Source of the DNA: an uncultured bacterium
Lineage (GTDB): Bacteria; Oederibacteriota; Oederibacteriia; Oederibacteriales; Oederibacteriaceae
Length of the DNA stretch: 64,000 bases
Assembly: GCA_965112635.1 (NCBI GenBank)
Contig: OZ218778.1
Span: 128,001-192,000 of the forward strand
Direction of reading: 5' to 3'
The notes under the pieces were generated by a model. It saw nothing but the letters and a program-made list of their open reading frames with translations, searched no databases and was not told where the DNA came from. The position numbers and the translations under genes are program-made. Every line of letters starts with the position of its first letter. Within the stretch, counting starts at the first letter, position 1. Below are positions 3,768-64,000 of the stretch, one piece after another.

Positions 3768-6215
3768 CTAGGACTTGATCCTCATCTTATAGAACGAACG
3801 CCATACAAAGGTCACCGACACCAAGAAAAAGCACAGGGCCACGACTAGCCTGGTCTGCTGGGGCAGGGTGATGGCCAGTTCCACAGCCAGTAAACCGAAC
3901 AGGGTCGTGAACTTGATGACCGGGTTCATGGCTACGGAAGAGGTATCCTTGAACGGGTCACCGACCGTATCGCCGACCACCGTGGCCGCGTGCAGCTCCG
4001 TCCCTTTTTGGTCCATATCCGTCTCCACGATCTTCTTGGCATTGTCCCACGCGCCGCCCGCGTTAGCCATAAAGATGGCCTGGTACAGGCCGAAGATGGC
4101 GATGGAGATCAGGTAGCCGATGAAGAAATAGGAGTCTAGGCAGGCGAACGCCAGCGTCCCGCAAAACACGGCGATAAAGATGTTGAACATGCCCTTTTGC
4201 GCGTACTTGGTGCATATCTCCACGACCTTCTTGGAATCGGTGATGGAGGCCTTCTGGGCTCCCTTGCCCAGATGGATATTGCGTTTGATGAACTCCACGG
4301 CCCGGAAAGCTCCGGTGGAGACCGCCTGCGTGGAAGCGCCGGTGAACCAGTAGATCATGGCGCCGCCGGTGATGAGTCCCAGCAGGAACATGGGGTTGTA
4401 AATGGAGAAATAGCTGGATGCGTTGGAGAGCGCCTGCTCCGTGATCTTCATCCCCTCCGTGTAATTGGGGGTCAGCTTGTTGGCCAGGAGCACCATGATG
4501 GAGAAGACCAGGGTGGTGGCTCCGACCACGGCCGTGCCGATCAAGACAGGCTTGGCGGTCGCCTTAAAGGTATTGCCCGCCCCGTCATTCTCTTCCAATA
4601 GCGCTTTTGCTCTCTTGAAGTTCGGGTCAAAACCGAAAGTTTTCTTGATATCGTTCTTGATATTTTTGATGGTCTCGATGGTGGACAGTTCGTACACGGA
4701 CTGCGCGTTGTCAGTGACCGGGCCGTAGGAATCCACGGCAATGGTCACCGGGCCCATGCCCAGGAAGCCAAAGGCCACCAGACCAAAAGCGAACACCGCC
4801 GGAGCGACCATCAGGGCCCCCAGGCCAAAAGTAGATACGCCATAGGCAATGGCCATCAGGATGACGATGGAAAGTCCTATATAGTAGGCCGAGAAGTTGC
4901 CGGCCACGAACCCGGACAGGATGGTGAGCGAAGGGCCGCCCTCCTGGGCCGACTCCACGACTTCTTGGACATGCCTGGACTTGGTGGAGGTGAACACCTT
5001 GACCAACTCGGGAATGATAGCTCCGGCCAGGGTACCGCAGGTGATGATACAGGACAGTTTCCACCACAGGGTCCCGTCCCCGAGATTGGGGATGAGCAGG
5101 CTGGAAACCCAGAAGGTCATGCCCACTGAAATAAGGGAAGTGATCCAAACCAGCGAGGTCAGAGGGGACTCAAAGTTCATCTCGTCGCTGTTCTTATAGC
5201 GGGCCATGGCCAGGACCTCGTTGACGCCATAAGCCACTCCTGAGGTCACGATCATCATGACGCGCATGACAAAGATCCACACCAGCAGCTGCAGCTGGAC
5301 CATAGGGTCCGCGACGGCCAGCAGGATAAAGGTGATCAGGGCCACGCCAGTGACGCCGTAGGTTTCAAAGCCGTCGGCCGTGGGGCCCACAGAATCGCCC
5401 GCGTTGTCGCCCGTGCAGTCGGCGATAACACCGGGGTTGCGCGCGTCGTCTTCTTTGATCTTGAACACGATCTTCATCAGGTCTGAGCCGATATCCGCGA
5501 TCTTGGTAAAGATACCGCCCGCGATCCTGAGGGCTGCTGCGCCCAGGGACTCGCCGATGGCGAAACCGATGAAGCAGAATCCGGCCAGGTCGCCGGGAAT
5601 GACCAGCAGGATGAACAAGAGGATGATCAATTCAATGGAGATCAGGAGCATGCCGATGGAAATGCCAGACTTTAAAGGGATGGAATAGGCCGGGAACGGC
5701 TTGCCTTTAAGTGCGGCAAAGGCTGTGCGGGAGTTGGCAAAAGTATTGATCCGGATGCCGAACCACGCCACAGTGATGGACCCAGCGATACCCACCAGGC
5801 TGAATCCCAGGATGATGAGCATGTTGAGCGTCCCTACGGGTTTAAGCCAGCCGAAATAGATCCCTATGACCACCCCGATGAACACCCACAGGAGCAGGAT
5901 GAACTTGATCTGCGTGAGCAGATATGTTTTGCAGGTCTCGTAGATCAGCTCTGAGATGTCTTTCATGGACTGATGGACCGGCAGGCTCCTCAGGTAAAGG
6001 TACATCACCAGGCCGAACAGCATGCCCAGGACGCACACGCCCATCCCCCACTGCAGGATGGTCGCCCCCGGGGTGCCCATAAAACTGACCAGCCCCAGGT
6101 CCGGGATCTTCAGGTCCGCCTCGCTCGCGAACGCTGGCATAGCTAAAAGGCTGATGGCCAATGTTGATACTATCGCGGCCAAAGCCCTTTGGAACCACTT
6201 AAAGCTTTTAACCAT
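3768..6215 (-). CDS. hppA: Membrane-bound H+-translocating pyrophosphatase, divergent K+-independent type
   Basis: GGIFTKIADIGSDL, EDDARNPGVIADCTGDNAGD, DSYGPVTDNA, GNTFKA, GGAWDNAKK and GDTVGDPFKDTS motifs. Confidence 0.95.
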   Translation of the reverse strand: MVKSFKWFQRALAAIVSTLAISLLAMPAFASEADLKIPDLGLVSFMGTPGATILQWGMGVCVLGMLFGLVMYLYLRSLPVHQSMKDISELIYETCKTYLLTQIKFILLLWVFIGVVIGIYFGWLKPVGTLNMLIILGFSLVGIAGSITVAWFGIRINTFANSRTAFAALKGKPFPAYSIPLKSGISIGMLLISIELIILLFILLVIPGDLAGFCFIGFAIGESLGAAALRIAGGIFTKIADIGSDLMKIVFKIKEDDARNPGVIADCTGDNAGDSVGPTADGFETYGVTGVALITFILLAVADPMVQLQLLVWIFVMRVMMIVTSGVAYGVNEVLAMARYKNSDEMNFESPLTSLVWITSLISVGMTFWVSSLLIPNLGDGTLWWKLSCIITCGTLAGAIIPELVKVFTSTKSRHVQEVVESAQEGGPSLTILSGFVAGNFSAYYIGLSIVILMAIAYGVSTFGLGALMVAPAVFAFGLVAFGFLGMGPVTIAVDSYGPVTDNAQSVYELSTIETIKNIKNDIKKTFGFDPNFKRAKALLEENDGAGNTFKATAKPVLIGTAVVGATTLVFSIMVLLANKLTPNYTEGMKITEQALSNASSYFSIYNPMFLLGLITGGAMIYWFTGASTQAVSTGAFRAVEFIKRNIHLGKGAQKASITDSKKVVEICTKYAQKGMFNIFIAVFCGTLAFACLDSYFFIGYLISIAIFGLYQAIFMANAGGAWDNAKKIVETDMDQKGTELHAATVVGDTVGDPFKDTSSVAMNPVIKFTTLFGLLAVELAITLPQQTRLVVALCFFLVSVTFVWRSFYKMRIKS

Positions 6216-6290
6216 TGTTCCTCCTTAAAATAGTTTTCCTCCGGTCCAATAAAGGGAGGGGTATACTTTTATGAAAACAACGAAAACATT

Positions 6291-6319
6291 ACTATAGAAT
6301 TATCCGTTTGAGCTGTCAA
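6291..6319 (-). promoter_or_regulatory. Sigma70 promoter of hppA
   Basis: TTGACA-N17-TATAGT on the minus strand ~75 bp upstream of the start. Confidence 0.65.
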
Positions 6320-6434
6320 TAACGGCTGACCCTCTAAAAGAAACAGGTTGGCCGCATGATTCATGCAATTTTTTACAACAGACGCGCTTTAAAACTTGTT
6401 ATGGATCAATGTGATATTTGTAAAAAAGAGGCCA

Positions 6435-7004
6435 TTATTTCTGGTTCGGCGTCTCGGTGACCCGTGGAAGCGCGGGCGGTATCTTGGCCTTGCGGACCAA
6501 CTCGATGGCTTTTTCAGCCAGCGGATCCCCCATCGTTTCAGCATGGTAAAGGTCCTCCAACGCTGTCTTCTTATTATGCTTGTCCAGCTGGAATTCGGCG
6601 ATCCCACGCTTTAAATAAGCCGCGGCAAAACCAGGGTTGAGCTGGATCACCTTGCTCAGGTCTTTGATGGCTGCGGCGCAGTTGCCCGCGGCACAGTTGA
6701 GGGCTCCCCGGGCGAAATAAGCATCGGCGTTGTCCGGGGCGAATTCCACGGCCTTGTTATAGTCCGCAATGGCGCCTTTAATGTCAGCCAGGTCTTCCCG
6801 GGCCAGCCCGCGCTTGAGATATATAGCGCCATCTTGAGGGTCTTGAGCAAGGGCCTTGGTGCATTCATCGATCACTCTTTGATGTTCCTGGTAGGCGGCG
6901 GTGCTGGTGACCCCGTTGTATCCGGTGGCCGGTTTCGCAGCCTGGCTGATAGCGCTGAGAAACACCACGCAACAAAAGAAGACCGAACACAATATTTTTT
7001 TCAT
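6435..7004 (-). CDS. Exported tetratricopeptide repeat protein
   Basis: Signal peptide; repeated AY.xRG...AIxDYxKA TPR consensus. Confidence 0.8.
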   Translation of the reverse strand: MKKILCSVFFCCVVFLSAISQAAKPATGYNGVTSTAAYQEHQRVIDECTKALAQDPQDGAIYLKRGLAREDLADIKGAIADYNKAVEFAPDNADAYFARGALNCAAGNCAAAIKDLSKVIQLNPGFAAAYLKRGIAEFQLDKHNKKTALEDLYHAETMGDPLAEKAIELVRKAKIPPALPRVTETPNQK

Positions 7005-7535: not shown

Positions 7536-8783
7536 TTAATCTTCCTCTGCCCGGGCCTGGAGCGATTTCAGCTGGACCAGTTCCGGCCACTTTTTCCCCA
7601 CGGCTCCCACGACCAGCATGGTGGCCACCCCGCCGCCCACCACCGAAATGACCGGGCCGAAAAGCCAGGCCGTCAGCCCGGACTCGAACCAGCCCAGCTC
7701 ATTGGAAATGCTGATGAACATATTGTTGACCGCCTGCACCCTGCCTCTCATGGCATCCGGGGTCCTGACCATGACCAGGGTATGCCGGACCACCACGCTG
7801 ATATTATCCATGCCTCCCACAATGGCCAGCAGCACCAGGGAAAACCAGAAGGTATGGGACATCCCAAATCCTATCGTAGCCACTCCAAATCCAGCCACGG
7901 CAATGAACAAAGCTTTGCCGGCTTGTTTCAAAATAGGGTATCTCGATAAGAACCATATCATGACCATGGCTCCGACGGAGGGGGCCGCCCTGAGCCATCC
8001 CAGGCCAGCCGGCCCCACCTGCAGGATATCCTTGGCGTAAATGGGCAGAAGCGCCACGGCCCCGCCGAACAGGACCGCGAACAGGTCCAGGGTCATTACG
8101 CTCAGCAGGATGGGATGGGTCCAGACAAATCGCACTCCTCCCGCCAAGGAATGCAAGGTGACTTTTTTCACGGCAACCTTTGTCTGCCTGACCCGTATCC
8201 CCGCCAGGAATAAGCAATAACACAAGATGGCCAGCATGGTAAACCCATAAACATAGGTTGACCCGGCCAATACGGCGATGAGCCAGCCTCCCAGGGCCGG
8301 TCCGATGACCGTCCCCACCTGCCAGCTGCTGCTTTGCCAGGTGGCGGCGTTGGCAAAATGTTTTAAGGGGAGCATCATGGGGACCAGGGTAGCTGTGGAC
8401 GGAGTGATAAACGCGCTGGCCATGGCATTAAAAAATAGGATCAGGTAAAAGTAAGGCACCGGACCCTTGTTCAAAGAGACCAGCAAAAGGGCCAGGGAAC
8501 AAAGCGCCTGGGCGATCAGGCCCAGGATTGCCACCTTTTTCCTGTTAAAGCGGTCAGCCGTATGCCCGGCAGGCAAGGCCAGCAGGATGATGGGGACGAC
8601 CTGGACCAGCCCCAGCCAGGCCAGCACCATGGCTGAGTGGGTCCGTTCATAAAGCTCCCAGCTGATGGCTACGGCCTGCATCTGCCCGCCAATGACCTGA
8701 ATAAGCCTGCCAATAAAATAAAGCCGGTAGGACGAATACCTGAACGCGGCATAAGGGTCCTGGGTTGTTTTGTTTCCCATCAT
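7536..8783 (-). CDS. MFS transporter (EntS-like/MFS_3)
   Basis: About 12 hydrophobic segments, motif A GHTADRFNRK, C-terminal TPDAMRGRV. Confidence 0.88.
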   Translation of the reverse strand: MMGNKTTQDPYAAFRYSSYRLYFIGRLIQVIGGQMQAVAISWELYERTHSAMVLAWLGLVQVVPIILLALPAGHTADRFNRKKVAILGLIAQALCSLALLLVSLNKGPVPYFYLILFFNAMASAFITPSTATLVPMMLPLKHFANAATWQSSSWQVGTVIGPALGGWLIAVLAGSTYVYGFTMLAILCYCLFLAGIRVRQTKVAVKKVTLHSLAGGVRFVWTHPILLSVMTLDLFAVLFGGAVALLPIYAKDILQVGPAGLGWLRAAPSVGAMVMIWFLSRYPILKQAGKALFIAVAGFGVATIGFGMSHTFWFSLVLLAIVGGMDNISVVVRHTLVMVRTPDAMRGRVQAVNNMFISISNELGWFESGLTAWLFGPVISVVGGGVATMLVVGAVGKKWPELVQLKSLQARAEED

Positions 8784-8789
8784 CTCCTC

Positions 8790-9773
8790 TTAAAAATGCC
8801 GGTAGCCTTTGGGTTTCAGGGGCAGGTTTTTTAGTCCCGAGGTCATCAATCTTATTCCCTGCCTGGCCGGGATGATCCTGCCAATACAGGAAACTGGTAC
8901 CTGCCCTATTTTCTTCGGAACCTTGCCGAAAGACGCGGTGAAAACAAGTTCGTATTCTTCCCCGCCGTTCACGGCCCAGTCCAAAGCAGATTTTCTGGCT
9001 TTTTTAGCCAGGGTCACGGCTGGCTGAAACACGGGCACGACTCCTTCCAGGAGCAGGGCGCCGACCTTGCTTTCCTGGCAGATATGGTGTACTTCGCTGG
9101 CCAGGCCGTCACTGATATCCATCATGGCGTGCACGGCTTTTGTCTTCATGAGCGCCAATGACTCTTTGACCCGGGCTTGAGGAACAAGATGCCTTTTCTT
9201 TAACTCCCTAGCCGACCTGCCATCTATTTTTATTTTCCGGTTCTGCAGTAAAAAAAGCCCGGCTGCTGACCCGCCTAATGCTCCGGTGACAAAAATACCG
9301 TCCCCGACTTTGGCGCCTGAACGCAGGGCCGTGCCATAAGGCCCAGCCTCGCCCAAAACCGTCACATCCAGCACCACCTTGGAGCTTTTGACCGTGTCTC
9401 CGCCGACCAAAACTGCCCCGTATTTCTTGCAGGCCAGCTTGACACCCTTGTAAACACTGTCAAAAAATCTGACCGGCAAATCCCGGCAGCCCAGCGAAAC
9501 CACACAAAACCTGGGCACTCCTCCCATGGCGGCGATGTCGCTGATGGCCGTAGTAACCGCCTTGGCTCCCACCTCAAAAGGGGTGGCAGTTTTTAGGGAG
9601 AAATGGACATCCTCCACCGACATATCGCAGGTCAAAAGGATTTTCTTTGTTCCAAATCCTTTGAGCACAGCCGCATCATCCCCGATGCCGGTCAGCACAC
9701 CCTTGGTTCTTTTGGGCGCGCCCTTTTTCAGCCGGTCGATGAGACCAAACTCTCCTAACTTACCCAATTTCAT
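8790..9773 (-). CDS. thiL: Thiamine-monophosphate kinase
   Basis: GEFGLI, GIGDDAA, SDIAAMGG, GGDT, MDISDGL and GGEEYEL motifs. Confidence 0.95.
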   Translation of the reverse strand: MKLGKLGEFGLIDRLKKGAPKRTKGVLTGIGDDAAVLKGFGTKKILLTCDMSVEDVHFSLKTATPFEVGAKAVTTAISDIAAMGGVPRFCVVSLGCRDLPVRFFDSVYKGVKLACKKYGAVLVGGDTVKSSKVVLDVTVLGEAGPYGTALRSGAKVGDGIFVTGALGGSAAGLFLLQNRKIKIDGRSARELKKRHLVPQARVKESLALMKTKAVHAMMDISDGLASEVHHICQESKVGALLLEGVVPVFQPAVTLAKKARKSALDWAVNGGEEYELVFTASFGKVPKKIGQVPVSCIGRIIPARQGIRLMTSGLKNLPLKPKGYRHF

Positions 9774-57377: not shown

Positions 57378-57584
57378 CTACTTTCTGTTGTCTAAAACGG
57401 CCAAGACCTGTTTTAAAGACCGGCTGGGTTCGCGGTGGCGCGCTTCGGCTATGGCCAAGTCTATCAAGTCTTCGCGTATGACCTTGTCCTTGACCAGTTC
57501 CACAATCACCTGGTTCTTCCCTTTTTTCGGAAGCGCTTCAAATGCTGTCATAAAAACCTCAGCAGTCGCTTGTAACTTAGTCAT
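57378..57584 (-). CDS. Probable antitoxin of the RelE toxin
   Basis: Small ORF directly upstream of relE with EDLIDLAIA..R..EP acidic motif; AGGAGG RBS. Confidence 0.75.
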   Translation of the reverse strand: MTKLQATAEVFMTAFEALPKKGKNQVIVELVKDKVIREDLIDLAIAEARHREPSRSLKQVLAVLDNRK

Positions 57585-57674
57585 CTCTGTTCCTCCTGCC
57601 AAGTATTATAAGTGAATCCAATTGCGAAATCAAACCTACCTAGAAAAAGTGATATCATCGAAAGAGGAGGATCC

Positions 57675-58142
57675 ATGCAGGCCCCTATGAGACGGCAGGA
57701 CAGGAAGTTAACCGACCAACAAGCCTTAGCAATACTGGAAAAAGGCGAATACGGTGTTCTATCTATGTGCACACCGGACAATCAGGGTTACGGCGTGCCT
57801 GTAAGTTATGTCCTCTGGAATAATGCCCTTTATTTTCATGGAGCAGGACAAGGGACCAAATTAAGCAACCTCAAAAACAATAACAAGGTCTCTTTTTGCG
57901 TGGTGGGCCACACCCAAGTCCTTCCTGCTAAATTTAGCATGCAATACGAAAGCGCTATTGTTTCCGGGACCACCAGTGAAGTGGAGGGTGATGAAAAAAG
58001 ACAGGCGTTGGTGAAGTTCATAGAAAAGTATTCAGGCGAGTTCCTTCAGCAAGGCATCCAATATATTGATAAACAGTTTGATAACACCCTTGTGCTAAAA
58101 CTAACTATTACCACCCTCACCGGAAAAGCCAAAAAACCCTAG
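57675..58142 (+). CDS. Pyridoxamine 5'-phosphate oxidase-like flavoprotein (NimA family)
   Basis: MRRQDR, GEYGVLS, YGVPVSY, LYFHGA..G.K, VSFCVV and YESAIV.G. Confidence 0.9.
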   Translation: MQAPMRRQDRKLTDQQALAILEKGEYGVLSMCTPDNQGYGVPVSYVLWNNALYFHGAGQGTKLSNLKNNNKVSFCVVGHTQVLPAKFSMQYESAIVSGTTSEVEGDEKRQALVKFIEKYSGEFLQQGIQYIDKQFDNTLVLKLTITTLTGKAKKP

Positions 58143-58147
58143 CTCAA

Positions 58148-58193
58148 CTAAACCATCATTTTTTGCATGTCACAAGTAAAGACGCGACCCCGG
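58148..58193. repeat. Cassette-boundary repeat, copy A
   Basis: ACTAAACCATCATTTTTTGCATGTCACAAGTAAAGACGCGACCCCGG; near-identical to 62124-62170 and 62182-62223. Confidence 0.85.
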
Positions 58194-58224
58194 CTCACGC
58201 CTCTTTTCGCAATGCCCCCGAATT

Positions 58225-58539
58225 CTACAAATTTTCGTTCCGAAGACGTTTCGCTCTTTGATTCCATGCTGTTGCTAATATGTATTTCCAAGTAAAGTAG
58301 ACAATCAACCACATTAAAGCTATGGCAATCCAAAAACAAAACCAACATATTTTTTTTTCTGTGGCAACGATTAGTATGGCAAACAACACACTACCAAAAA
58401 ACCCACAATAGATCGTTAATTTGAGAATCAATACAGTATCGAAATCATTTGTTTTGGAAGGACGCCAACTCAATATTGGCCACCAGCCCCAATCCATGTC
58501 GGAAAACCAATTAGCGATTTTTTCTAGTTTATCATTCAT
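58225..58539 (-). CDS. AT-rich hypothetical membrane protein (cassette)
   Basis: GGAG RBS, two hydrophobic segments, low GC. Confidence 0.65.
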   Translation of the reverse strand: MNDKLEKIANWFSDMDWGWWPILSWRPSKTNDFDTVLILKLTIYCGFFGSVLFAILIVATEKKICWFCFWIAIALMWLIVYFTWKYILATAWNQRAKRLRNENL

Positions 58540-58618
58540 CTTTATCTCCCCGGAATAATCGAATTACGAACCATTTAATTTACTTTCAACAAACAAAGTG
58601 AACCAAATATTCAGCATG

Positions 58619-59278
58619 CTATTCTTTATTTTCCCATTCAATTGGCCTAGGGGAGTCAAAGCGATTATAGACTTCACCGTTCGAGGATTTAATATCTCCA
58701 AATATTAATAAGGACAATGTTCTTTTGTATTTTTCGTTTTCATTCAATCTGTCATAATTTTTTTGTACCTTTTTCATTTCACTACCATTATTTTCTAACC
58801 TTTTAATAAATTTACAAATAGCCTCTTTTAAATCATCTACTAATTGACAGATATTTATGACAATAATTATTTTTTCCCTATTCCCATCTACTTGGTAACA
58901 TTTTAAATGTTCCTGTCTATGGCACTGTTTTGAAGAATTATTTGAAAGCCATAATAATTGAATTTGATTTGCAACCATAAATGTTTTGGGTTTATATTGG
59001 TGAATAGTGCCATGACGCCACATATTGATTAAAATATGAACAATTGGTTTATATTTTTCATCAAAATAGGTCTTAATAAAATCCATCTCTCTTTTGGTTG
59101 ATTTAGCATTACGGCCAGAAAGCAAAGCACCTAAATAATCAATGTAACAAAAGACTTGCCGAGGAATACTAAAATATCCACCCCCAGCATATCCATGAAA
59201 CTGAGTTACTGCTGCTATATCATCATTTATAGAATCCAACATATCGTTTTTTAGAAACTCAATAACATTTTTAGTCAT
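58619..59278 (-). CDS. AT-rich hypothetical protein with HEPN-like R-x4-H motif (cassette)
   Basis: CYIDYLG...FIKTYF...WRHGTIH; strongly AT-rich relative to the window. Confidence 0.65.
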   Translation of the reverse strand: MTKNVIEFLKNDMLDSINDDIAAVTQFHGYAGGGYFSIPRQVFCYIDYLGALLSGRNAKSTKREMDFIKTYFDEKYKPIVHILINMWRHGTIHQYKPKTFMVANQIQLLWLSNNSSKQCHRQEHLKCYQVDGNREKIIIVINICQLVDDLKEAICKFIKRLENNGSEMKKVQKNYDRLNENEKYKRTLSLLIFGDIKSSNGEVYNRFDSPRPIEWENKE

Positions 59279-59298
59279 TTAATAATGTTCTCCGAATT

Positions 59299-59316
59299 GG
59301 ACTCGAACCTGCGACC
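59299..59316 (-). other. tRNA T-arm-like fragment
   Basis: GGTCGCAGGTTCGAGTCC on the minus strand; no remaining cloverleaf. Confidence 0.45.
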
Positions 59317-59365
59317 ACATTTTTAACCGGCCTTCACAACTATTATCTCTGCCGTAATTGATACT

Positions 59366-59395
59366 AAAAAGGTTCCAGGTCTTGTTTTTTGCTTT
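59366..59395. repeat. Degenerate inverted partner of the cassette repeat (block A)
   Basis: AAAAAGGTTCCAGGTCTTGTTTTTTGCTTT; similar to 62812-62841 and inverted relative to CAAGACGCGACCCC. Confidence 0.55.
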
Positions 59396-59439
59396 CCACT
59401 GCGTCCGATCCAATGGTTATTTACTCCCCAAGTTTACCC

Positions 59440-60171
59440 TTATCGCGCCTGGCTGACCACAAAATCAACCAGTTCCCGGCATTCAAACCAGCCCGGCCAC
59501 ATATCATGGCCTTTTCCCCTGACCAGGTTAAGGGTCATGGCCCCGCCCAGCTTGCGGTAGCGCCGGCACAGTTCGCCGGAATTCTTTTCCAATGGCACGA
59601 CCGTATCGCTGTCCCCGTGGATGTGATAAATGGGGATACGCGCCTTGGCCAGTGGCTCCAGGCGGTCAATGGGATTATGCTCTTTCAGTCCGGCCTGGAG
59701 CTGCAGCTCGGTCATTCCATAAGCTTCGCAGGCTTTGTCAACGCCGGGGTAGCTGGTCAGGGCGCACACGGGATAGATGCCCGCCACGCAGGCCACGCAA
59801 AAGGGATGCTCCACGGCCCAGTTATAGTGCATCAATCCTCCCCGGCTTCTGGCCAGCAAACAGGGCGTCTGGGAATAGCCGCGCCTCTGGACCATCTCCT
59901 CGTAAAAGCAAGTGAACAGGGCCCGGCCCGCGGGACTGCCGAACGATTCACCAACGTCTATTCCTGAAACAGCCAGCCCGTTTTTTAGGAACTCCTGAAG
60001 CATCCATTTTTCTTCCGGGCCCGGGTAGGCAGGCAGTGTCGGCGCGTACCAAACCCAGGGTTTCCCCGGCTTGGCCAAACTGTTATCCGGAGCGATCAAA
60101 AACGTCGTGCAGTTCTTTACGCTAAAAACTTGTCCGGGTATGGGCAATTCTTTGGACGGCCCCATCCGCAC
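59440..60171 (-). CDS. Alpha/beta hydrolase (paralog A)
   Basis: ARSRGG nucleophile elbow, HGDSD and GHD triad; ~90% identical to 62923-63645 by manual comparison. Confidence 0.88.
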   Translation of the reverse strand: MRMGPSKELPIPGQVFSVKNCTTFLIAPDNSLAKPGKPWVWYAPTLPAYPGPEEKWMLQEFLKNGLAVSGIDVGESFGSPAGRALFTCFYEEMVQRRGYSQTPCLLARSRGGLMHYNWAVEHPFCVACVAGIYPVCALTSYPGVDKACEAYGMTELQLQAGLKEHNPIDRLEPLAKARIPIYHIHGDSDTVVPLEKNSGELCRRYRKLGGAMTLNLVRGKGHDMWPGWFECRELVDFVVSQAR

Positions 60172-60238
60172 TCCTCAACTTCCCAACCAGATTGCATTAG
60201 ACGGCTCATATTTTTCTTTCTAATTTTTGCCGTGGGGT

Positions 60239-60757
60239 TTAATTTTGCTCGGAAAACTGAATATTGTTCTTATCAAGTAAAGCAATGACAGCAGAGATAT
60301 CAGTCACATATTTGAGCTCAATCTTCCACCGCCGGATCGCTTCCGCCATCGTAATCGTTTCGCATGCAAGAGCCTTTTTCGGTTCCCGCGTAATATATTC
60401 ATTGCTGGGAATTGGTTCAAAACCGTCACGGGTAAAAGTGAACACTGTCGGACAGAAATCCAAGATCATCTTTTGGTCCTCTTGACGGGCAAACAGAAGC
60501 GTTCTGCAGTCAGACCGCAGCTGATATCCCAGGGCATGTATTCTATCCGCGGAATCCGGCGTGACCCTTACGCGTAACCTTCTGACTTTGGGCAGCAAAT
60601 GGATGCTCACCTCGTCGAAGTCGCCGGCATACAAGACAGCATCTTCGATATATCCCTCTCGGGGACGATTTGAACTGCTTTTCCAATCAGGCGTGTGCCA
60701 GAACCTGGTTGGCTGGAAGATCATATCGCTTCTTGGTTTAGTCACTTTGTAGAGCAT
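60239..60757 (-). CDS. Hypothetical protein
   Basis: 172-aa ORF co-oriented with neighbours; no recognised motif. Confidence 0.55.
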   Translation of the reverse strand: MLYKVTKPRSDMIFQPTRFWHTPDWKSSSNRPREGYIEDAVLYAGDFDEVSIHLLPKVRRLRVRVTPDSADRIHALGYQLRSDCRTLLFARQEDQKMILDFCPTVFTFTRDGFEPIPSNEYITREPKKALACETITMAEAIRRWKIELKYVTDISAVIALLDKNNIQFSEQN

Positions 60758-60787
60758 GTCGTGTTTTCCAATTTAGGATTTCCCCTA

Positions 60788-60919
60788 TTATCCCTGATGG
60801 TCTTTTCCAAACACATTTTTAACAGCCTGCAAGTAGCCGTATCCCCAGCGCTCGTCCGGCAGGAGGTAACTGCCCTCGGTCCACTCATTCCAGCTGTTGA
60901 GGGTCAGGAGAGGAGCCTG
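60788..60919 (-). pseudogene. C-terminal remnant of the GH99-like gene
   Basis: Encodes [40 protein letters not shown], near-identical to the end of the gene at 63663; no start. Confidence 0.85.
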
Positions 60920-60942
60920 GCCCGTGGAACTCGAAAACGCCG

Positions 60943-61356
60943 TCAGATTTTTTGAACAATCTTGGTTTTAACCCATTCAAAGAACCTTTCCGCGTGCTTC
61001 ACGATCTCATCGGCTTCTTTCCGCGTGAATAGGCGGGATTCATATTCCACCAGGTTTTTCTGGTTCAGTATCTTACGAAGATGGCCGGCCGCATCGTCCG
61101 TTCCTTTGAACATCACTTTTTGCTGTAGAAGAACGGTCAGGTCCGAATGTTTTTGGCTGGAGCTTCGCAAACCGGCTTCAGCGACCAGGATGGCATCGGC
61201 TGAGCTGATCGCGCAATGTATGGCCGAAAGGGCGGCGGCATTCCAGCGGTCCCCGGCATAGTTATCGGTCATGGAATCGTAAAACTCCTGGGACTTTTTC
61301 CAATATAGAGCGGCTTGTTTGTGATCCACTTCTCTGGTGGGAATCTTACCTGCCAC
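60943..61356 (-). CDS. HEPN domain protein
   Basis: Helical [27 protein letters not shown] pattern; overlaps the upstream MNT gene. Confidence 0.8.
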
Positions 61357-62017
61357 TGACGATCACCTCCATTTTGCTTTTGCCATGGACCACGATCCCA
61401 TCCCGATGGATATTCTTGACCAGGGGGTCGCCTTGCTTCATTTTGCGCCTGTATTCCATGACCGTATAGACGACCGGGGACAACATGATCTGGGTGTTGC
61501 GCTCAAATTCCATGGTCAACCACTCCAGAGTCGCTCCTTGAATGGACGCCTTATCTTTTTCCCCATTGACCAGGACCAGCAGGTCGGCATCGCTTGGCCA
61601 ATCCGCCTTGCCGGTGGCCCAGCTTCCGAATAAGACCAAAGAAACGACCCTCCCCCTTATTTCCCTGGGGAGCCTGCGGAAAAGTTCGTCTATTTCCATG
61701 ACGATCAACTTGTTTGGGTCAAGGCTGGGTTCTAATATCCTTTTATATAGAAGATGGGCGCGGTTGACCGTATAGACATGGCTATTGCCTATCCTCTTTA
61801 CCTGAACGAGACCGGACGAGGTAAGTTCTTTCAATACCCGGTGCACGGTCGGATGGGACAAACCGCTGTCCCTAGCCAACTGCCGGCCGCTCAATCCGGC
61901 GGGGTCGTTACGGAGAAGGCGGAGCAGACGCCAGACCGGACTGGCCGGAAAGAGTTTTTCCATAATGGATGAGTGGTGAAATTCATTGATCTTCTTCATG
62001 GTAAATAATATTACCAT
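61346..62017 (-). CDS. HTH plus minimal nucleotidyltransferase (MNT antitoxin-like)
   Basis: SGRQLARDSGLSHPTVHRVL HTH; LFGSWATGKADWPSDADL (GS-x10-DxD). Confidence 0.88.
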   Translation of the reverse strand: MVILFTMKKINEFHHSSIMEKLFPASPVWRLLRLLRNDPAGLSGRQLARDSGLSHPTVHRVLKELTSSGLVQVKRIGNSHVYTVNRAHLLYKRILEPSLDPNKLIVMEIDELFRRLPREIRGRVVSLVLFGSWATGKADWPSDADLLVLVNGEKDKASIQGATLEWLTMEFERNTQIMLSPVVYTVMEYRRKMKQGDPLVKNIHRDGIVVHGKSKMEVIVSGR

Positions 62018-62036
62018 ATGGTAAGTATATTTACCA
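61999..62036. promoter_or_regulatory. Palindromic operator overlapping the MNT start
   Basis: TGGTAAATAATATTACCATATGGTAAGTATATTTACCA with perfect core TTACCATATGGTAA. Confidence 0.6.
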
Positions 62037-62123
62037 ACATAATGTGGGTCCCCACCTATTTCGGCGTTTCGGCAAATGCCAAATGACCGAAAGGCTGGAA
62101 AATTGCAAGATTAGGCGGGGGTT

Positions 62124-62223
62124 ACTGAACCTTCAATTTTTGCATGTCACATGTCAAGACGCGACCCCGGAGCTATAAGGTAACTTCAATTTAAACATGT
62201 CACATGTCAAGACGCGACCCCGG
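62124..62223. repeat. Cassette-boundary repeat, tandem copies B and C (53-bp period)
   Basis: CATGTCACATGTCAAGACGCGACCCCGGAG occurs twice, with the CCCCGG ending at 62170 and 62223. Confidence 0.88.
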
Positions 62224-62424
62224 AGGCGCTGATCCAGAAGATATATCATTGATATATAAATTTATTTCACTGTAAGCAGGCGAGGAAATACATAATTGTT
62301 GAATCGCACTTCTAGTGATAAAAGGATGAGAAGTGTTATTATCCCAAGCAAAACACTTATCAGATTTAGAAAACGTTAACAATACTAATACCCAAAACAA
62401 TAACGGAATCATTTTCCTTGCCAT
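62200..62424 (-). pseudogene. Truncated secreted protein with a Zn-phospholipase C/S1-P1-like N-terminus (cassette)
   Basis: Signal peptide followed by AWDNNTSHPFITRSA (W..H motif); frame runs into and stops inside the repeat. Confidence 0.5.
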
Positions 62425-62443
62425 GTTATTTTACCCTTACATC

Positions 62444-62689
62444 CTAAAATATATTGTCATGGAGAACAGTTACGGAATAATAAGTAAGAGCTAATATGAT
62501 GGGAATGTGAATCACAAGAAATAATAAATAAAGCATCTTTTTTCTGTGCCTGAATTTCCACAATAGTAAAAACATCAATGATAAATCAAGAAAGGCGCAA
62601 GGCACAAATTTATCGGGATGATACCAAGCAAAAGCTGGCACTTGTATTGGGGCTATAATTAATAAAACTATTAAAGTATGAAACTCCAT
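62444..62689 (-). CDS. AT-rich small membrane protein (cassette)
   Basis: Three hydrophobic segments, low GC. Confidence 0.55.
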   Translation of the reverse strand: MEFHTLIVLLIIAPIQVPAFAWYHPDKFVPCAFLDLSLMFLLLWKFRHRKKMLYLLFLVIHIPIILALTYYSVTVLHDNIF

Positions 62690-62811
62690 ATTTTCTTACC
62701 TATTCCCTTCTATATAATATTTACTGAATGTCATTCGTTACCAGGACTTGGATTGCCTCCTGACTACCCAGCCCATCTGTATCTACCTCATTTTTTAGGA
62801 TACTGATCAAT

Positions 62812-62841
62812 AAAAAGGTACCGTGTCTTGTTTCTTGCATT
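62812..62841. repeat. Degenerate inverted partner of the cassette repeat (block B)
   Basis: AAAAAGGTACCGTGTCTTGTTTCTTGCATT; same position relative to the hydrolase as 59366-59395. Confidence 0.55.
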
Positions 62842-62852
62842 CTGCCATCTCC

Positions 62853-62886
62853 CCTGCCTACCCTGAGCCTGTCGAAGGGCCTGCCT
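62853..62886. repeat. REP-like palindrome (copy 2) flanked by CCTGCCT direct repeats
   Basis: CCTGCCT-A-CCCTGAGCCTGTCGAAGGG-CCTGCCT; absent from the paralogous spacer near 59400. Confidence 0.55.
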
Positions 62887-62922
62887 CCGGCTCTTTGGCT
62901 ACTTACTCACCAATTTTACCTC

Positions 62923-63645
62923 TTATCTTGCCTGGCTGACCACAAAATCAAGCAGTTCCTGACATTCAAACCAGCCCGGCCACATATCATGGCCTTTGCC
63001 TTGGACCAGATTAAGTGTCATCACCCCGCCCAGCTGGCGGTAGCGCAGAGCCAGCTCGCCGGAATTCTTTTCCAAAGGTACCACCGTATCGCTGTCTCCG
63101 TGGATGTGATAAATGGGGACACGGCCTTTAGCCAGAGGCTCCAGGCGGTCAATGGGATTATGTCCGGCCAGCTTGGCCTGAAGCTGTTGTTCGGTCATTC
63201 CATAAGCTTCGCAGGCTTTGTCAACGCCGGGGTAGCTGGTCAGGTCGCACACGGGATAGATACCCGCCACGCAAGCCACGCAAACGGGATGCTCCACCGC
63301 CCAGTTATAGTGCATCAGCCCTCCCCGGCTTCTGGCCAGCAAACAGGGAGTCTGTGAATAACCGCGTTGGACCATAACCTCATAAAAGGAAGTGAACAAA
63401 GCCCGGCCGGCAGGACTGCCGAACGATTCACCCACGTCTATGCCTGCGACAGCCAGCCCGTTTTTAAGGAACTCTTGGAACATCCATTTTTCTTCCGGGC
63501 CCGGGTAAGCAGGCAGGGTCGGCGCGTACCACACCCACGGCCTCCCCTGTTTGGCCAAACTGTTTTCCGGCGCGATCAAAAAAGCCGTGCAGTTCTTTAC
63601 GCTAAAAACTTGTCCGGGTATGGGCAGTTCTTTGGAAGGCTCCAC
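62923..63645 (-). CDS. Alpha/beta hydrolase (paralog B)
   Basis: ARSRGG, HGDSD and GHD; GAGGAG RBS. Confidence 0.88.
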   Translation of the reverse strand: MEPSKELPIPGQVFSVKNCTAFLIAPENSLAKQGRPWVWYAPTLPAYPGPEEKWMFQEFLKNGLAVAGIDVGESFGSPAGRALFTSFYEVMVQRGYSQTPCLLARSRGGLMHYNWAVEHPVCVACVAGIYPVCDLTSYPGVDKACEAYGMTEQQLQAKLAGHNPIDRLEPLAKGRVPIYHIHGDSDTVVPLEKNSGELALRYRQLGGVMTLNLVQGKGHDMWPGWFECQELLDFVVSQAR

Positions 63646-63662
63646 TCAAACTCCTCTTTCAC

Positions 63663-64000
63663 TCACCCTTTGCTATCTTTTCCAAACACATTTTTAACCG
63701 CCTGCAGGTAACCGTATCCCCAGCGTTGGTCCGGCAGGAGGTAACTGCCCTCGGTCCATTCATTCCAGCTATTGAGGGTCAGGAGCGGCGTCTGTTGCGG
63801 ACGGCTGTCCAAAAAGCTTTTGGCTTTCCGCAGGCAGGCCTCAAAAGCCTCAGGAGTGGAGCCGGTTACCGCGGTCTTGGCCGAGGGAAAGCGGTGGGTG
63901 TTGTCCCAGCCGATGGAGACTTGGGGAAAATATTGGTTGAATTCCTTTTCATATCCTTCCCAGCTGGCCATGGCCTTTTGCGCCCAGGCCGGGTAGCCCC
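63663..64000 (-). CDS. GH99-like/WbsX-like glycoside hydrolase domain protein, 3' part (runs off the window)
   Basis: YFPQVSIGWDNTHR and [23 protein letters not shown] motifs. Confidence 0.85.
   Translation of the reverse strand, partial: GYPAWAQKAMASWEGYEKEFNQYFPQVSIGWDNTHRFPSAKTAVTGSTPEAFEACLRKAKSFLDSRPQQTPLLTLNSWNEWTEGSYLLPDQRWGYGYLQAVKNVFGKDSKG

Follow-up and report, generated by a model that had tools for sequence, protein, structure and literature searches.

Near the right-hand end of a 64,000-nt stretch of DNA from an uncultured bacterium of the family Oederibacteriaceae (contig OZ218778.1, positions 128,001 to 192,000; hereafter the window), a repeat of about 47 nt and its degenerate inverted partners enclose AT-rich genes, and on the evidence of their sequence these repeats and partners are solo terminal inverted repeats (TIRs) of TIRtron/TIRYT elements. 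The window belongs to one contig of 2,876,006 nt, referred to below as the genome. A TIRtron is a small element consisting of one Y1/HUH tyrosine-transposase gene (TIRYT, TnpA-Y1 subclass 2.1) between TIRs of about 25 nt with GGGGTC tips. A first-pass annotation had read the same repeats as parts of an integron-like gene-capture system; we incline, with modest confidence, to a reading in which they are TIRtron relics with recombination-active tips, the AT-rich genes are ordinary accessory DNA, and no dedicated capture machinery is involved.

The direct repeat of 47 nt is present in three copies (58147-58193; 62124-62170, 89% identical to the first; 62177-62223, 74%), and alignments between repeat copies (blastn) reached E values of 2e-8 to 5e-25, far beyond chance. 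The inverted partner is a degenerate pair of 32 nt (59365-59396 and 62811-62842, 84% identical) that includes GGTTCCAGGTCTTG and GGTACCGTGTCTTG. Both had been described in the first-pass annotation and were recovered here, with the third direct copy starting at 62177 and not at 62182. The middle copy (62124-62170) reaches inward to about 62099, and 56-71 nt of it are matched in two other genome copies. The TIR core carries two 7-nt direct repeats. We distinguish L-type and R-type ends as follows, together with the AT-rich blocks that they face and the open reading frames (ORFs) therein:

58147..58193, plus strand: L-type solo TIR of copy A; tip GACCCC at 58186-58191, facing right into block A (TIR-end profile, nhmmer E 0.0035; 75-nt L profile, E 6e-14)
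58194..59358, minus strand: AT-rich block A; two ORFs, the first of 104 aa (58225-58539), the second of 219 aa (58619-59278); GC 0.24-0.37
59365..59396, minus strand: R-type degenerate TIR of copy A; tip facing left into block A; weak profile match, E 6.5
62099..62170, plus strand: L', an extended TIR-bearing repeat of about 72 nt; tip to the right; E 2.4e-22 with the 75-nt L profile
62177..62223, plus strand: L-type solo TIR in head-to-tail tandem with L'; tip facing block B
62224..62803, minus strand: AT-rich block B; two ORFs, the first of 74 aa (62200-62424), the second of 81 aa (62444-62689); GC 0.31-0.36
62811..62842, minus strand: R-type degenerate TIR of copy B; tip facing left into block B; profile match E 4.2

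Each pair thus listed encloses a different set of co-oriented genes (104 and 219 aa; 74 and 81 aa, all on the minus strand), and GC drops at the repeats, the genome mean being 0.513; on both counts the earlier description held. Its statement that one cargo gene is cut at the repeat applies only in the sense that the 74-aa ORF ends inside the third copy (62177-62223), and the tandem copies that it likened to an empty slot are real but no such slot, tandem ends being common in this repeat family in other organisms. The tips in the window point inward, into the AT-rich blocks, which is the opposite of the arrangement at the transposase genes and at a 2.7-kb cargo unit elsewhere in the genome; because of this inward direction, the AT-rich blocks take the place of flanking DNA. 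Conversely, the block at 59371-62170 (hydrolase A, a 172-aa ORF, HEPN and MNT genes) has the geometry of an element, with tips outward, yet its GC is normal. The tips of the two R copies are mutated (GGAACC and GGTACC), and relatives of the R partner with intact GACCCC were found at genome positions 1451435-1451466 and 1451557-1451588. In two peat metagenome runs, where the organism is represented by short contigs at a depth of about 3, a 443-nt contig spans 57921-58363, across the L of copy A, without a difference; neither a joint nor an empty site nor a circle turned up at this depth, which is too low for the negative to carry weight.

The assignment to TIRtrons is carried by the genome as a whole. 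The core AAGAYNNGACCCC occurs 29 times in it, compared with 8 occurrences in a reversed-sequence control, and three units of 901-922 nt consist of one ORF of 277-278 aa with an H-Y-H motif between inverted cores, GGGGTC outermost (genome 1522657/1523578, 1775600/1776520 and 2734096/2734996). The transposase of about 278 aa matches Pfam Y1_Tnp at 5.8e-14. In total the genome holds five full Y1/HUH genes (45-58 bits, cut-off 23) and two fragments, none of them in the window; each of the five TIRYT genes (those singled out below are E1, at genome 1522713-1523549, E2, E3 and E5) has its own TIR subtype, and the transposases are about 55% identical. The link to Y1/HUH (RAYT-like) enzymes, which had been suspected from the window alone, is borne out by these five genes and their GGGGTC-tipped inverted flanks. 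At 278 aa the protein is longer than the 121-position core, and matches to the helix-turn-helix (HTH) families HTH_23 (E 0.002) and Sigma70_r4_2 (E 0.0021) were both below their cut-offs, as was that to NCBIfam REP_Tyr_transpos (RayT), at 72 bits with a cut-off of 80.

With strong TIR ends defined as matches to the TIR-end profile at E <= 0.02, the genome contains 22, and the 75-nt L-form profile finds 10 copies (E <= 7e-11); no transposase gene in the genome carries L ends, the subtype of the window. When the tips were compared with GGGG[AT][CG]A[CG], those of E2 (GGGGTCAC) and E3 (GGGGTCAG) fitted, those of E1 (GGGGTCGT/GGGGTCAC) and of the window L (GGGGTCGC) departed from the consensus at position 7, and the window R copies were degenerate. 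Six repeat stretches folded no better than shuffled sequences as single-stranded DNA (z +0.6 to +1.8), and because of this the repeats are neither hairpins of the repetitive extragenic palindrome (REP) kind nor attC-like. Tandem dimers of ends were observed in the window, at genome 1451435/1451557 and 2241/2415, and at several metagenome loci. Separately, genome 2100-2445 contains a 173-nt head-to-tail duplication, with copies 98% identical, that comprises a TIR and the first 38 codons of a TIRYT gene.

These properties can be set against systems already described. RAYT-like genes flanked by long TIRs unrelated to REPs, many sharing GGGGWSAS, were described by Di Nocera, De Gregorio and Rocco (2013; PMC3733652) as TIRtrons and TIRYTs, and the same paper gives moderately abundant TIR families that occur as singles, dimers or clusters. 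Most such genes belong, according to Quentin et al. (2018; PMC6006769), to TnpA-Y1 subclass 2.1 and have a C-terminal HTH. The terms TIRYT and TIRtron proved rare in a full-text literature search, with three papers of the library searched using either. The features agree: a Y1/HUH transposase of about 278 aa is present here, with a putative C-terminal HTH from below-cut-off matches, the gene is bounded by non-palindromic TIRs of about 25 nt whose tips fit or nearly fit GGGGWSAS, and moderately abundant solo TIRs occur as singles, dimers and clusters. The genome differs from the published descriptions in that TIR pairs also bound multi-gene cargo (NYN and KilA-N genes), that tips are biased towards AT-rich accessory DNA, and that the L subtype of the window has no cognate gene; term searches for 'cargo' and 'passenger' gave no occurrence in the available parts of PMC3733652 and PMC6006769. 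REPtrons and REPINs of the REP/RAYT type share a related Y1 clade, dispersed short intergenic repeats and a gene between inverted copies, but REPs are palindromes that fold into hairpins and bear a GTAG (or CGTC) tag, whereas the present repeats form no hairpin and have GGGGTC tips. IS91/ISCR elements are Y2 enzymes with ori and ter ends and no TIRs; the resemblance lies in an HUH enzyme, in end-adjacent DNA that could be co-mobilised, and in head-to-tail duplicated ends. Elements of the IS200/IS605 family have the Pfam family Y1_Tnp in common with the present genes, but they possess subterminal hairpins, no TIRs and a TnpA of about 150 aa; the genome has a single classical member, with an open frame of 146 aa, at 919642, and it is unrelated to the window repeats. 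Like an integron, the locus presents small, promoterless-looking gene blocks between repeated sites, with content that differs in paralogous positions; unlike one, it has no array beyond two blocks, its sites belong to a transposon family, and no attC-like fold is formed. Among five genome matches to the tyrosine recombinase family PF00589, the nearest, at 1018189, is separated from the window by over 800 kb.

Both repeat pairs fall within one diverged segmental duplication, of the order L, block, R, hydrolase gene and 119 nt of a WbsX-like gene, at about 87% identity, a state of affairs that the first-pass annotation had not recognised. The hydrolase copies (59440-60171 and 62923-63645) show 87.6% DNA identity over 764 nt and 89.6% protein identity, and of the following WbsX-like gene 119 nt are duplicated (60801-60919 and 63676-63794, 92%). 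A 625-nt stretch with the 172-aa ORF is found in copy A only, between the hydrolase gene and the WbsX fragment, and the MNT/HEPN module with its own L' repeat sits between the two copies of the duplication; at the junction 60919/60920 there is no repeat. On the L side, homology between A and B stops right after GACCCCGG; on the R side it stops about 13 nt past AAAAAGG. The enclosed DNA, 1165 nt in A and 580 nt in B, is unrelated between the copies. The idea that the repeats merely reflect a segmental duplication, raised in the earlier work as a counter-explanation, is right in that both pairs lie inside one, and fails in that the repeat occurs beyond the locus and the enclosed DNA differs.

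Across the genome, TIR ends and AT-rich DNA meet repeatedly. We scored a flank as AT-rich when GC was below 0.40 in the 400 nt beside the tip, for which the background is 7.6%. Of 289 AT-rich islands in the genome, 278 have no TIR end at the border and 11 have one, with the tip directed into the island in all but one of these 11. Islands bracketed on both sides number three, namely the two window blocks and genome 4370-5144, the latter by weak matches (E 5-9). The association between tips and AT-rich DNA is real but unexplained. Three of the ten AT-rich-facing cases represent one paralogous gene module: the E1, E3 and E5 TIRYT genes each adjoin AT-rich DNA (genome 1520950-1522495, 2731574-2734060 and 2874458-2875640) encoding a LolA-like protein, a secreted protein of 258-274 aa and a small secreted protein, and protein identity among the module copies is 38-61%, a divergence similar to that of the transposases (about 55%). 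Judged by these sequence comparisons, the three cases are one conserved neighbourhood and not three captures; the LolA-like module was not seen beside TIRYT genes in four metagenome loci. A far-side TIR was sought for the AT-rich blocks at E1, at E2 and at genome ends 2871683 and 2874498 and was not found. In another of the ten cases, a 3.5-kb block adjacent to a tip encodes an M48-like peptidase, a TIR-domain protein (in this case the protein domain) and AbiV, the latter two at genome 2015-2016.7 kb.

The 2.7-kb unit mentioned above (genome 1448871-1451583) is low in GC and has its tips outward, with one L-type end and two tandem R-type ends around NYN (PADLOC HEC-09) and KilA-N (PDC-S22) genes. 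A catalase gene in the region from genome 1448313 breaks off precisely where the L-type tip of the unit lies (Pfam position 197 of 383), and the remainder of the interrupted catalase is absent from the genome. By its geometry the unit is a candidate non-autonomous, TIR-bounded cargo element, in a single locus where the rest of the catalase is missing.

The repeat family is not peculiar to this bacterium. An exact 25-mer of it was found in 63 metagenome stretches, at loci with GC from 0.34 to 0.68, and this together with the 22 strong ends in the genome disposes of the objection, also raised earlier, that the motif might be confined to its locus. Four of the stretches have a TIRYT gene between ends, and many have dimers, some of them head-to-tail. 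In the values listed for 61 metagenome loci, inner and outer GC are alike, and none of the 61 is close to this genome. In alignments between different metagenome contigs (at least 300 nt, at least 90% identity), 10 of 54 internal alignment ends lay within 12 nt of a tip, compared with about 1% by chance, some ends mirroring the edge of the partner; among lake contigs, an indel of about 215 nt lies beside a tip, and different blocks are joined at one TIR. Pfam matches were obtained for 5 of 13 ORFs between metagenome repeat copies (DUF4160, DUF6883, YhcG nuclease, HATPase_c_4+HTH). One metagenome contig, from another organism, has two copies (5068-6568 and 8263-9691, 97.7% identity) of a module of three genes, for products of 175/151 aa, 101 aa (DUF4160) and 182 aa; this duplication ends at TIR tips and parallels that of the window. 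Within the phylum, the 17-mer core was present in none of 98 other genomes, and therefore the repeat family probably entered the lineage horizontally.

Under the reading that we prefer, TIR tips would be recombination-active junctions, either nicked by TIRYT in trans or serving as short homologies, and because they would be active, the DNA adjacent to them would be rearranged, duplicated or replaced; the AT-rich genes would be ordinary, horizontally moving accessory and defence-type genes that occupy the same flexible patches, with no dedicated integron-like capture machinery. In its favour are the identity of the repeats, the outward tips around transposase genes and the cargo unit, the halt of A/B homology at the tips, the breakpoints near tips in other organisms, and the lack of TIRs at the 16 loci with relatives of the 219-aa gene. 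Several observations weigh against it. TIRYT activity is demonstrated neither here nor in the available text of PMC3733652 or PMC6006769. The 7-kb locus gave only short, weak matches in 40 relatives, all of them related at the level of the phylum only. The L of copy A resembles L' (89%) more closely than it does the tandem L (74%), and because of this the order of events in the window is not reconstructable. AT-rich flanks were found on the outer side of 10 of the 22 strong ends and on the inner side of none (binomial p ~2e-6, two of the strong ends being adjacent and hence not independent), and passive co-location leaves it unexplained why only the outer side should be AT-rich. Moreover, different DNA precisely between inward tips in two copies of a duplication is the expected product of tip-specific exchange. 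Such an exchange, in which TIRYT in trans would cleave GACCCC tips and join foreign AT-rich DNA between inward tips, L and R being the recombination sites of an integrase-free gene-capture platform, would account for the asymmetry of the flanks, for the tips that face the island in 10 of 11 touching islands, and for the halt of A/B homology at the tips on both sides with wholly different DNA between; the defence-type genes next to tips (AbiV, the TIR-domain protein and the HEPN-like 219-aa gene) and the repeat-rich metagenome contigs with small accessory genes between copies are also in keeping with it. We nevertheless regard it as distinctly unlikely, since only 3 of 289 islands have an end at each border, with weak matches in one case, the E1, E3 and E5 ends abut one module that has co-diverged with its transposase gene (51% and 38% amino-acid identity between copies) and are not independent captures, inner and outer GC are alike in the listed metagenome values, the window R tips are mutated, and a transposase gene of the L subtype is absent from the genome. 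That inward solo TIR pairs serve as exchangeable slots for defence or accessory genes, integrase-free and joined by a Y1/HUH enzyme in trans, is likewise quite doubtful. Of what the first-pass annotation had proposed in this direction, the absence of an integrase and of attC sites stands; an enzyme acting in trans stands in so far as the repeat forms the ends of Y1/HUH genes whose products could do so, capture itself not being shown; the low-GC borders of its motif stand for 10 of 22 outer flanks and fall short in that only 11 of 289 islands touch a TIR; and integron-like capture is not supported, given the scarcity of bracketed islands, the blocks that lie outside the tips, and the relatives of the 219-aa gene that lack TIRs in 16 other genomes.

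At the other extreme, the repeats might be inert relics, in which one old segmental duplication and a chance neighbourhood would explain the locus, the TIRs being inactive and the AT-rich blocks having arrived by unrelated routes. The position of both pairs inside the duplication, the 278 islands without a TIR at the border, and the relatives of the 219-aa gene that form low-GC islands without TIRs in other phyla all agree with this; it is, in our estimation, fairly unlikely, as a duplication leaves unexplained why the enclosed DNA differs while both borders were kept, and neither the genome-wide bias of outer flanks nor the tip-coincident breakpoints between near-identical metagenome contigs would follow from it. 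A regulatory role, with L and R as promoter, operator or terminator modules (for example an operator of the winged HTH (wHTH) nucleotidyltransferase) copied together with neighbouring genes, draws on the position of L' upstream of the HTH-nucleotidyltransferase gene, on a degenerate L before a paralogous HTH fragment at genome 2023257-2023813, and on the two 7-nt direct repeats, which could be protein-binding sites. This role appears very improbable, given that five transposase genes are flanked by inverted pairs of the same core and that the 25-mer occurs in organisms whose GC ranges from 0.34 to 0.68. A scan for promoters and terminators found no excess (13 versus 8.9+/-3.0 and 6 versus 5.2+/-2.3) and no site apart from one weak terminator-like match inside L', and Rfam had nothing in 57500-64000 at E <= 1.

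To our knowledge, TIRtrons, named in 2013, have never been tested experimentally. What this genome adds is that TIR pairs can bound multi-gene cargo, that an IS110-family element has inserted within the TIR core more than once, and that tips coincide with the borders of AT-rich, partly defence-type DNA as well as with breakpoints at strain level elsewhere, in other organisms. Should the tips be enzymatically active junctions, Y1 transposases would have a further, new way of shaping the flexible regions of genomes; if they are inactive, the locus would be an ordinary patch of mobile-element debris.

The remaining genes of the locus, in and between the duplicated segments, are:

59440..60171, minus strand: alpha/beta-hydrolase-like gene, duplicate copy A
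60239..60757, minus strand: 172-aa ORF without a family match, within the 625-nt insertion of copy A only
60801..60919, minus strand: 3'-end fragment (119 nt) of a WbsX-like gene at the duplication junction, 92% identical to 63676-63794
60943..62017, minus strand: HEPN (137 aa) and wHTH-nucleotidyltransferase (223 aa) genes of the MNT/HEPN type (PADLOC PDC-M05A/B)
62923..63645, minus strand: alpha/beta-hydrolase-like gene, copy B
63663 to past the window end: full WbsX-like gene after hydrolase copy B (Pfam Glyco_tran_WbsX)

The MNT/HEPN pair directly adjoins the extended L' repeat, some 80-100 nt separating L' from the HTH-nucleotidyltransferase gene downstream of it, and the paralogous HTH fragment preceded by a degenerate L copy elsewhere (52% identity) comes after another L copy at genome 2023493. 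Within the AT-rich blocks, the 74-aa and 81-aa products are small and hydrophobic, and the 104-, 74- and 81-aa ORFs had no Pfam or PADLOC match and no paralogue within the genome. The 219-aa protein, which had no Pfam, PADLOC or NCBIfam match, has 80 homologues of 31-49% identity, the named sources being several bacterial phyla and one archaeon, with an invariant R88-x4-H93 in the family. Its AlphaFold model (predicted local distance difference test, pLDDT, 82) gave best structural matches to HEPN toxins (Z 6.8, 6.5 and 5.8) and AbiV (Z 5.2), values that are middling for a helical fold, and a Foldseek search of this model against the PDB returned nothing at E <= 0.001; the model suggests that the protein is probably HEPN-like, its unnamed family of at least 80 members being probably a new HEPN-like branch. 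Relatives of its gene are patchily spread over bacteria and archaea and often form a low-GC island in the host. At all 16 loci in other genomes that carry such a relative, no significant TIR and no TIRYT gene were detected, nor were relatives of the 104-, 74- or 81-aa ORFs. A stretch at about 59298-59316, directly upstream of the 219-aa gene, resembles a tRNA T-arm and may be a relic of an attachment site (att) or a chance resemblance; as an att relic it was rejected as too weak (19-nt tRNA-Met match, E 0.12). The 180-aa ORF at genome 2425-2967 was considered as Cas4 and discarded for want of Pfam support.

Two further observations concern TIRs elsewhere in the genome. An IS110-family element with a 348-aa DEDD transposase (Pfam) sits inside TIR cores at genome 2021899-2023274, 1-1372 and 1452523-1453891; its left junction reads ...GGGGTCA, and the right junction in two copies is the remaining TIR (..TCTTGAAA..). 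The element appears to target the TIRtron tip, a preference comparable to that reported for REP or attC sites in other IS110/IS1111 members. At genome 4356-4557, two direct repeats of 61-64 nt, 91% identical to each other, enclose a small TIR-like element of about 77 nt.

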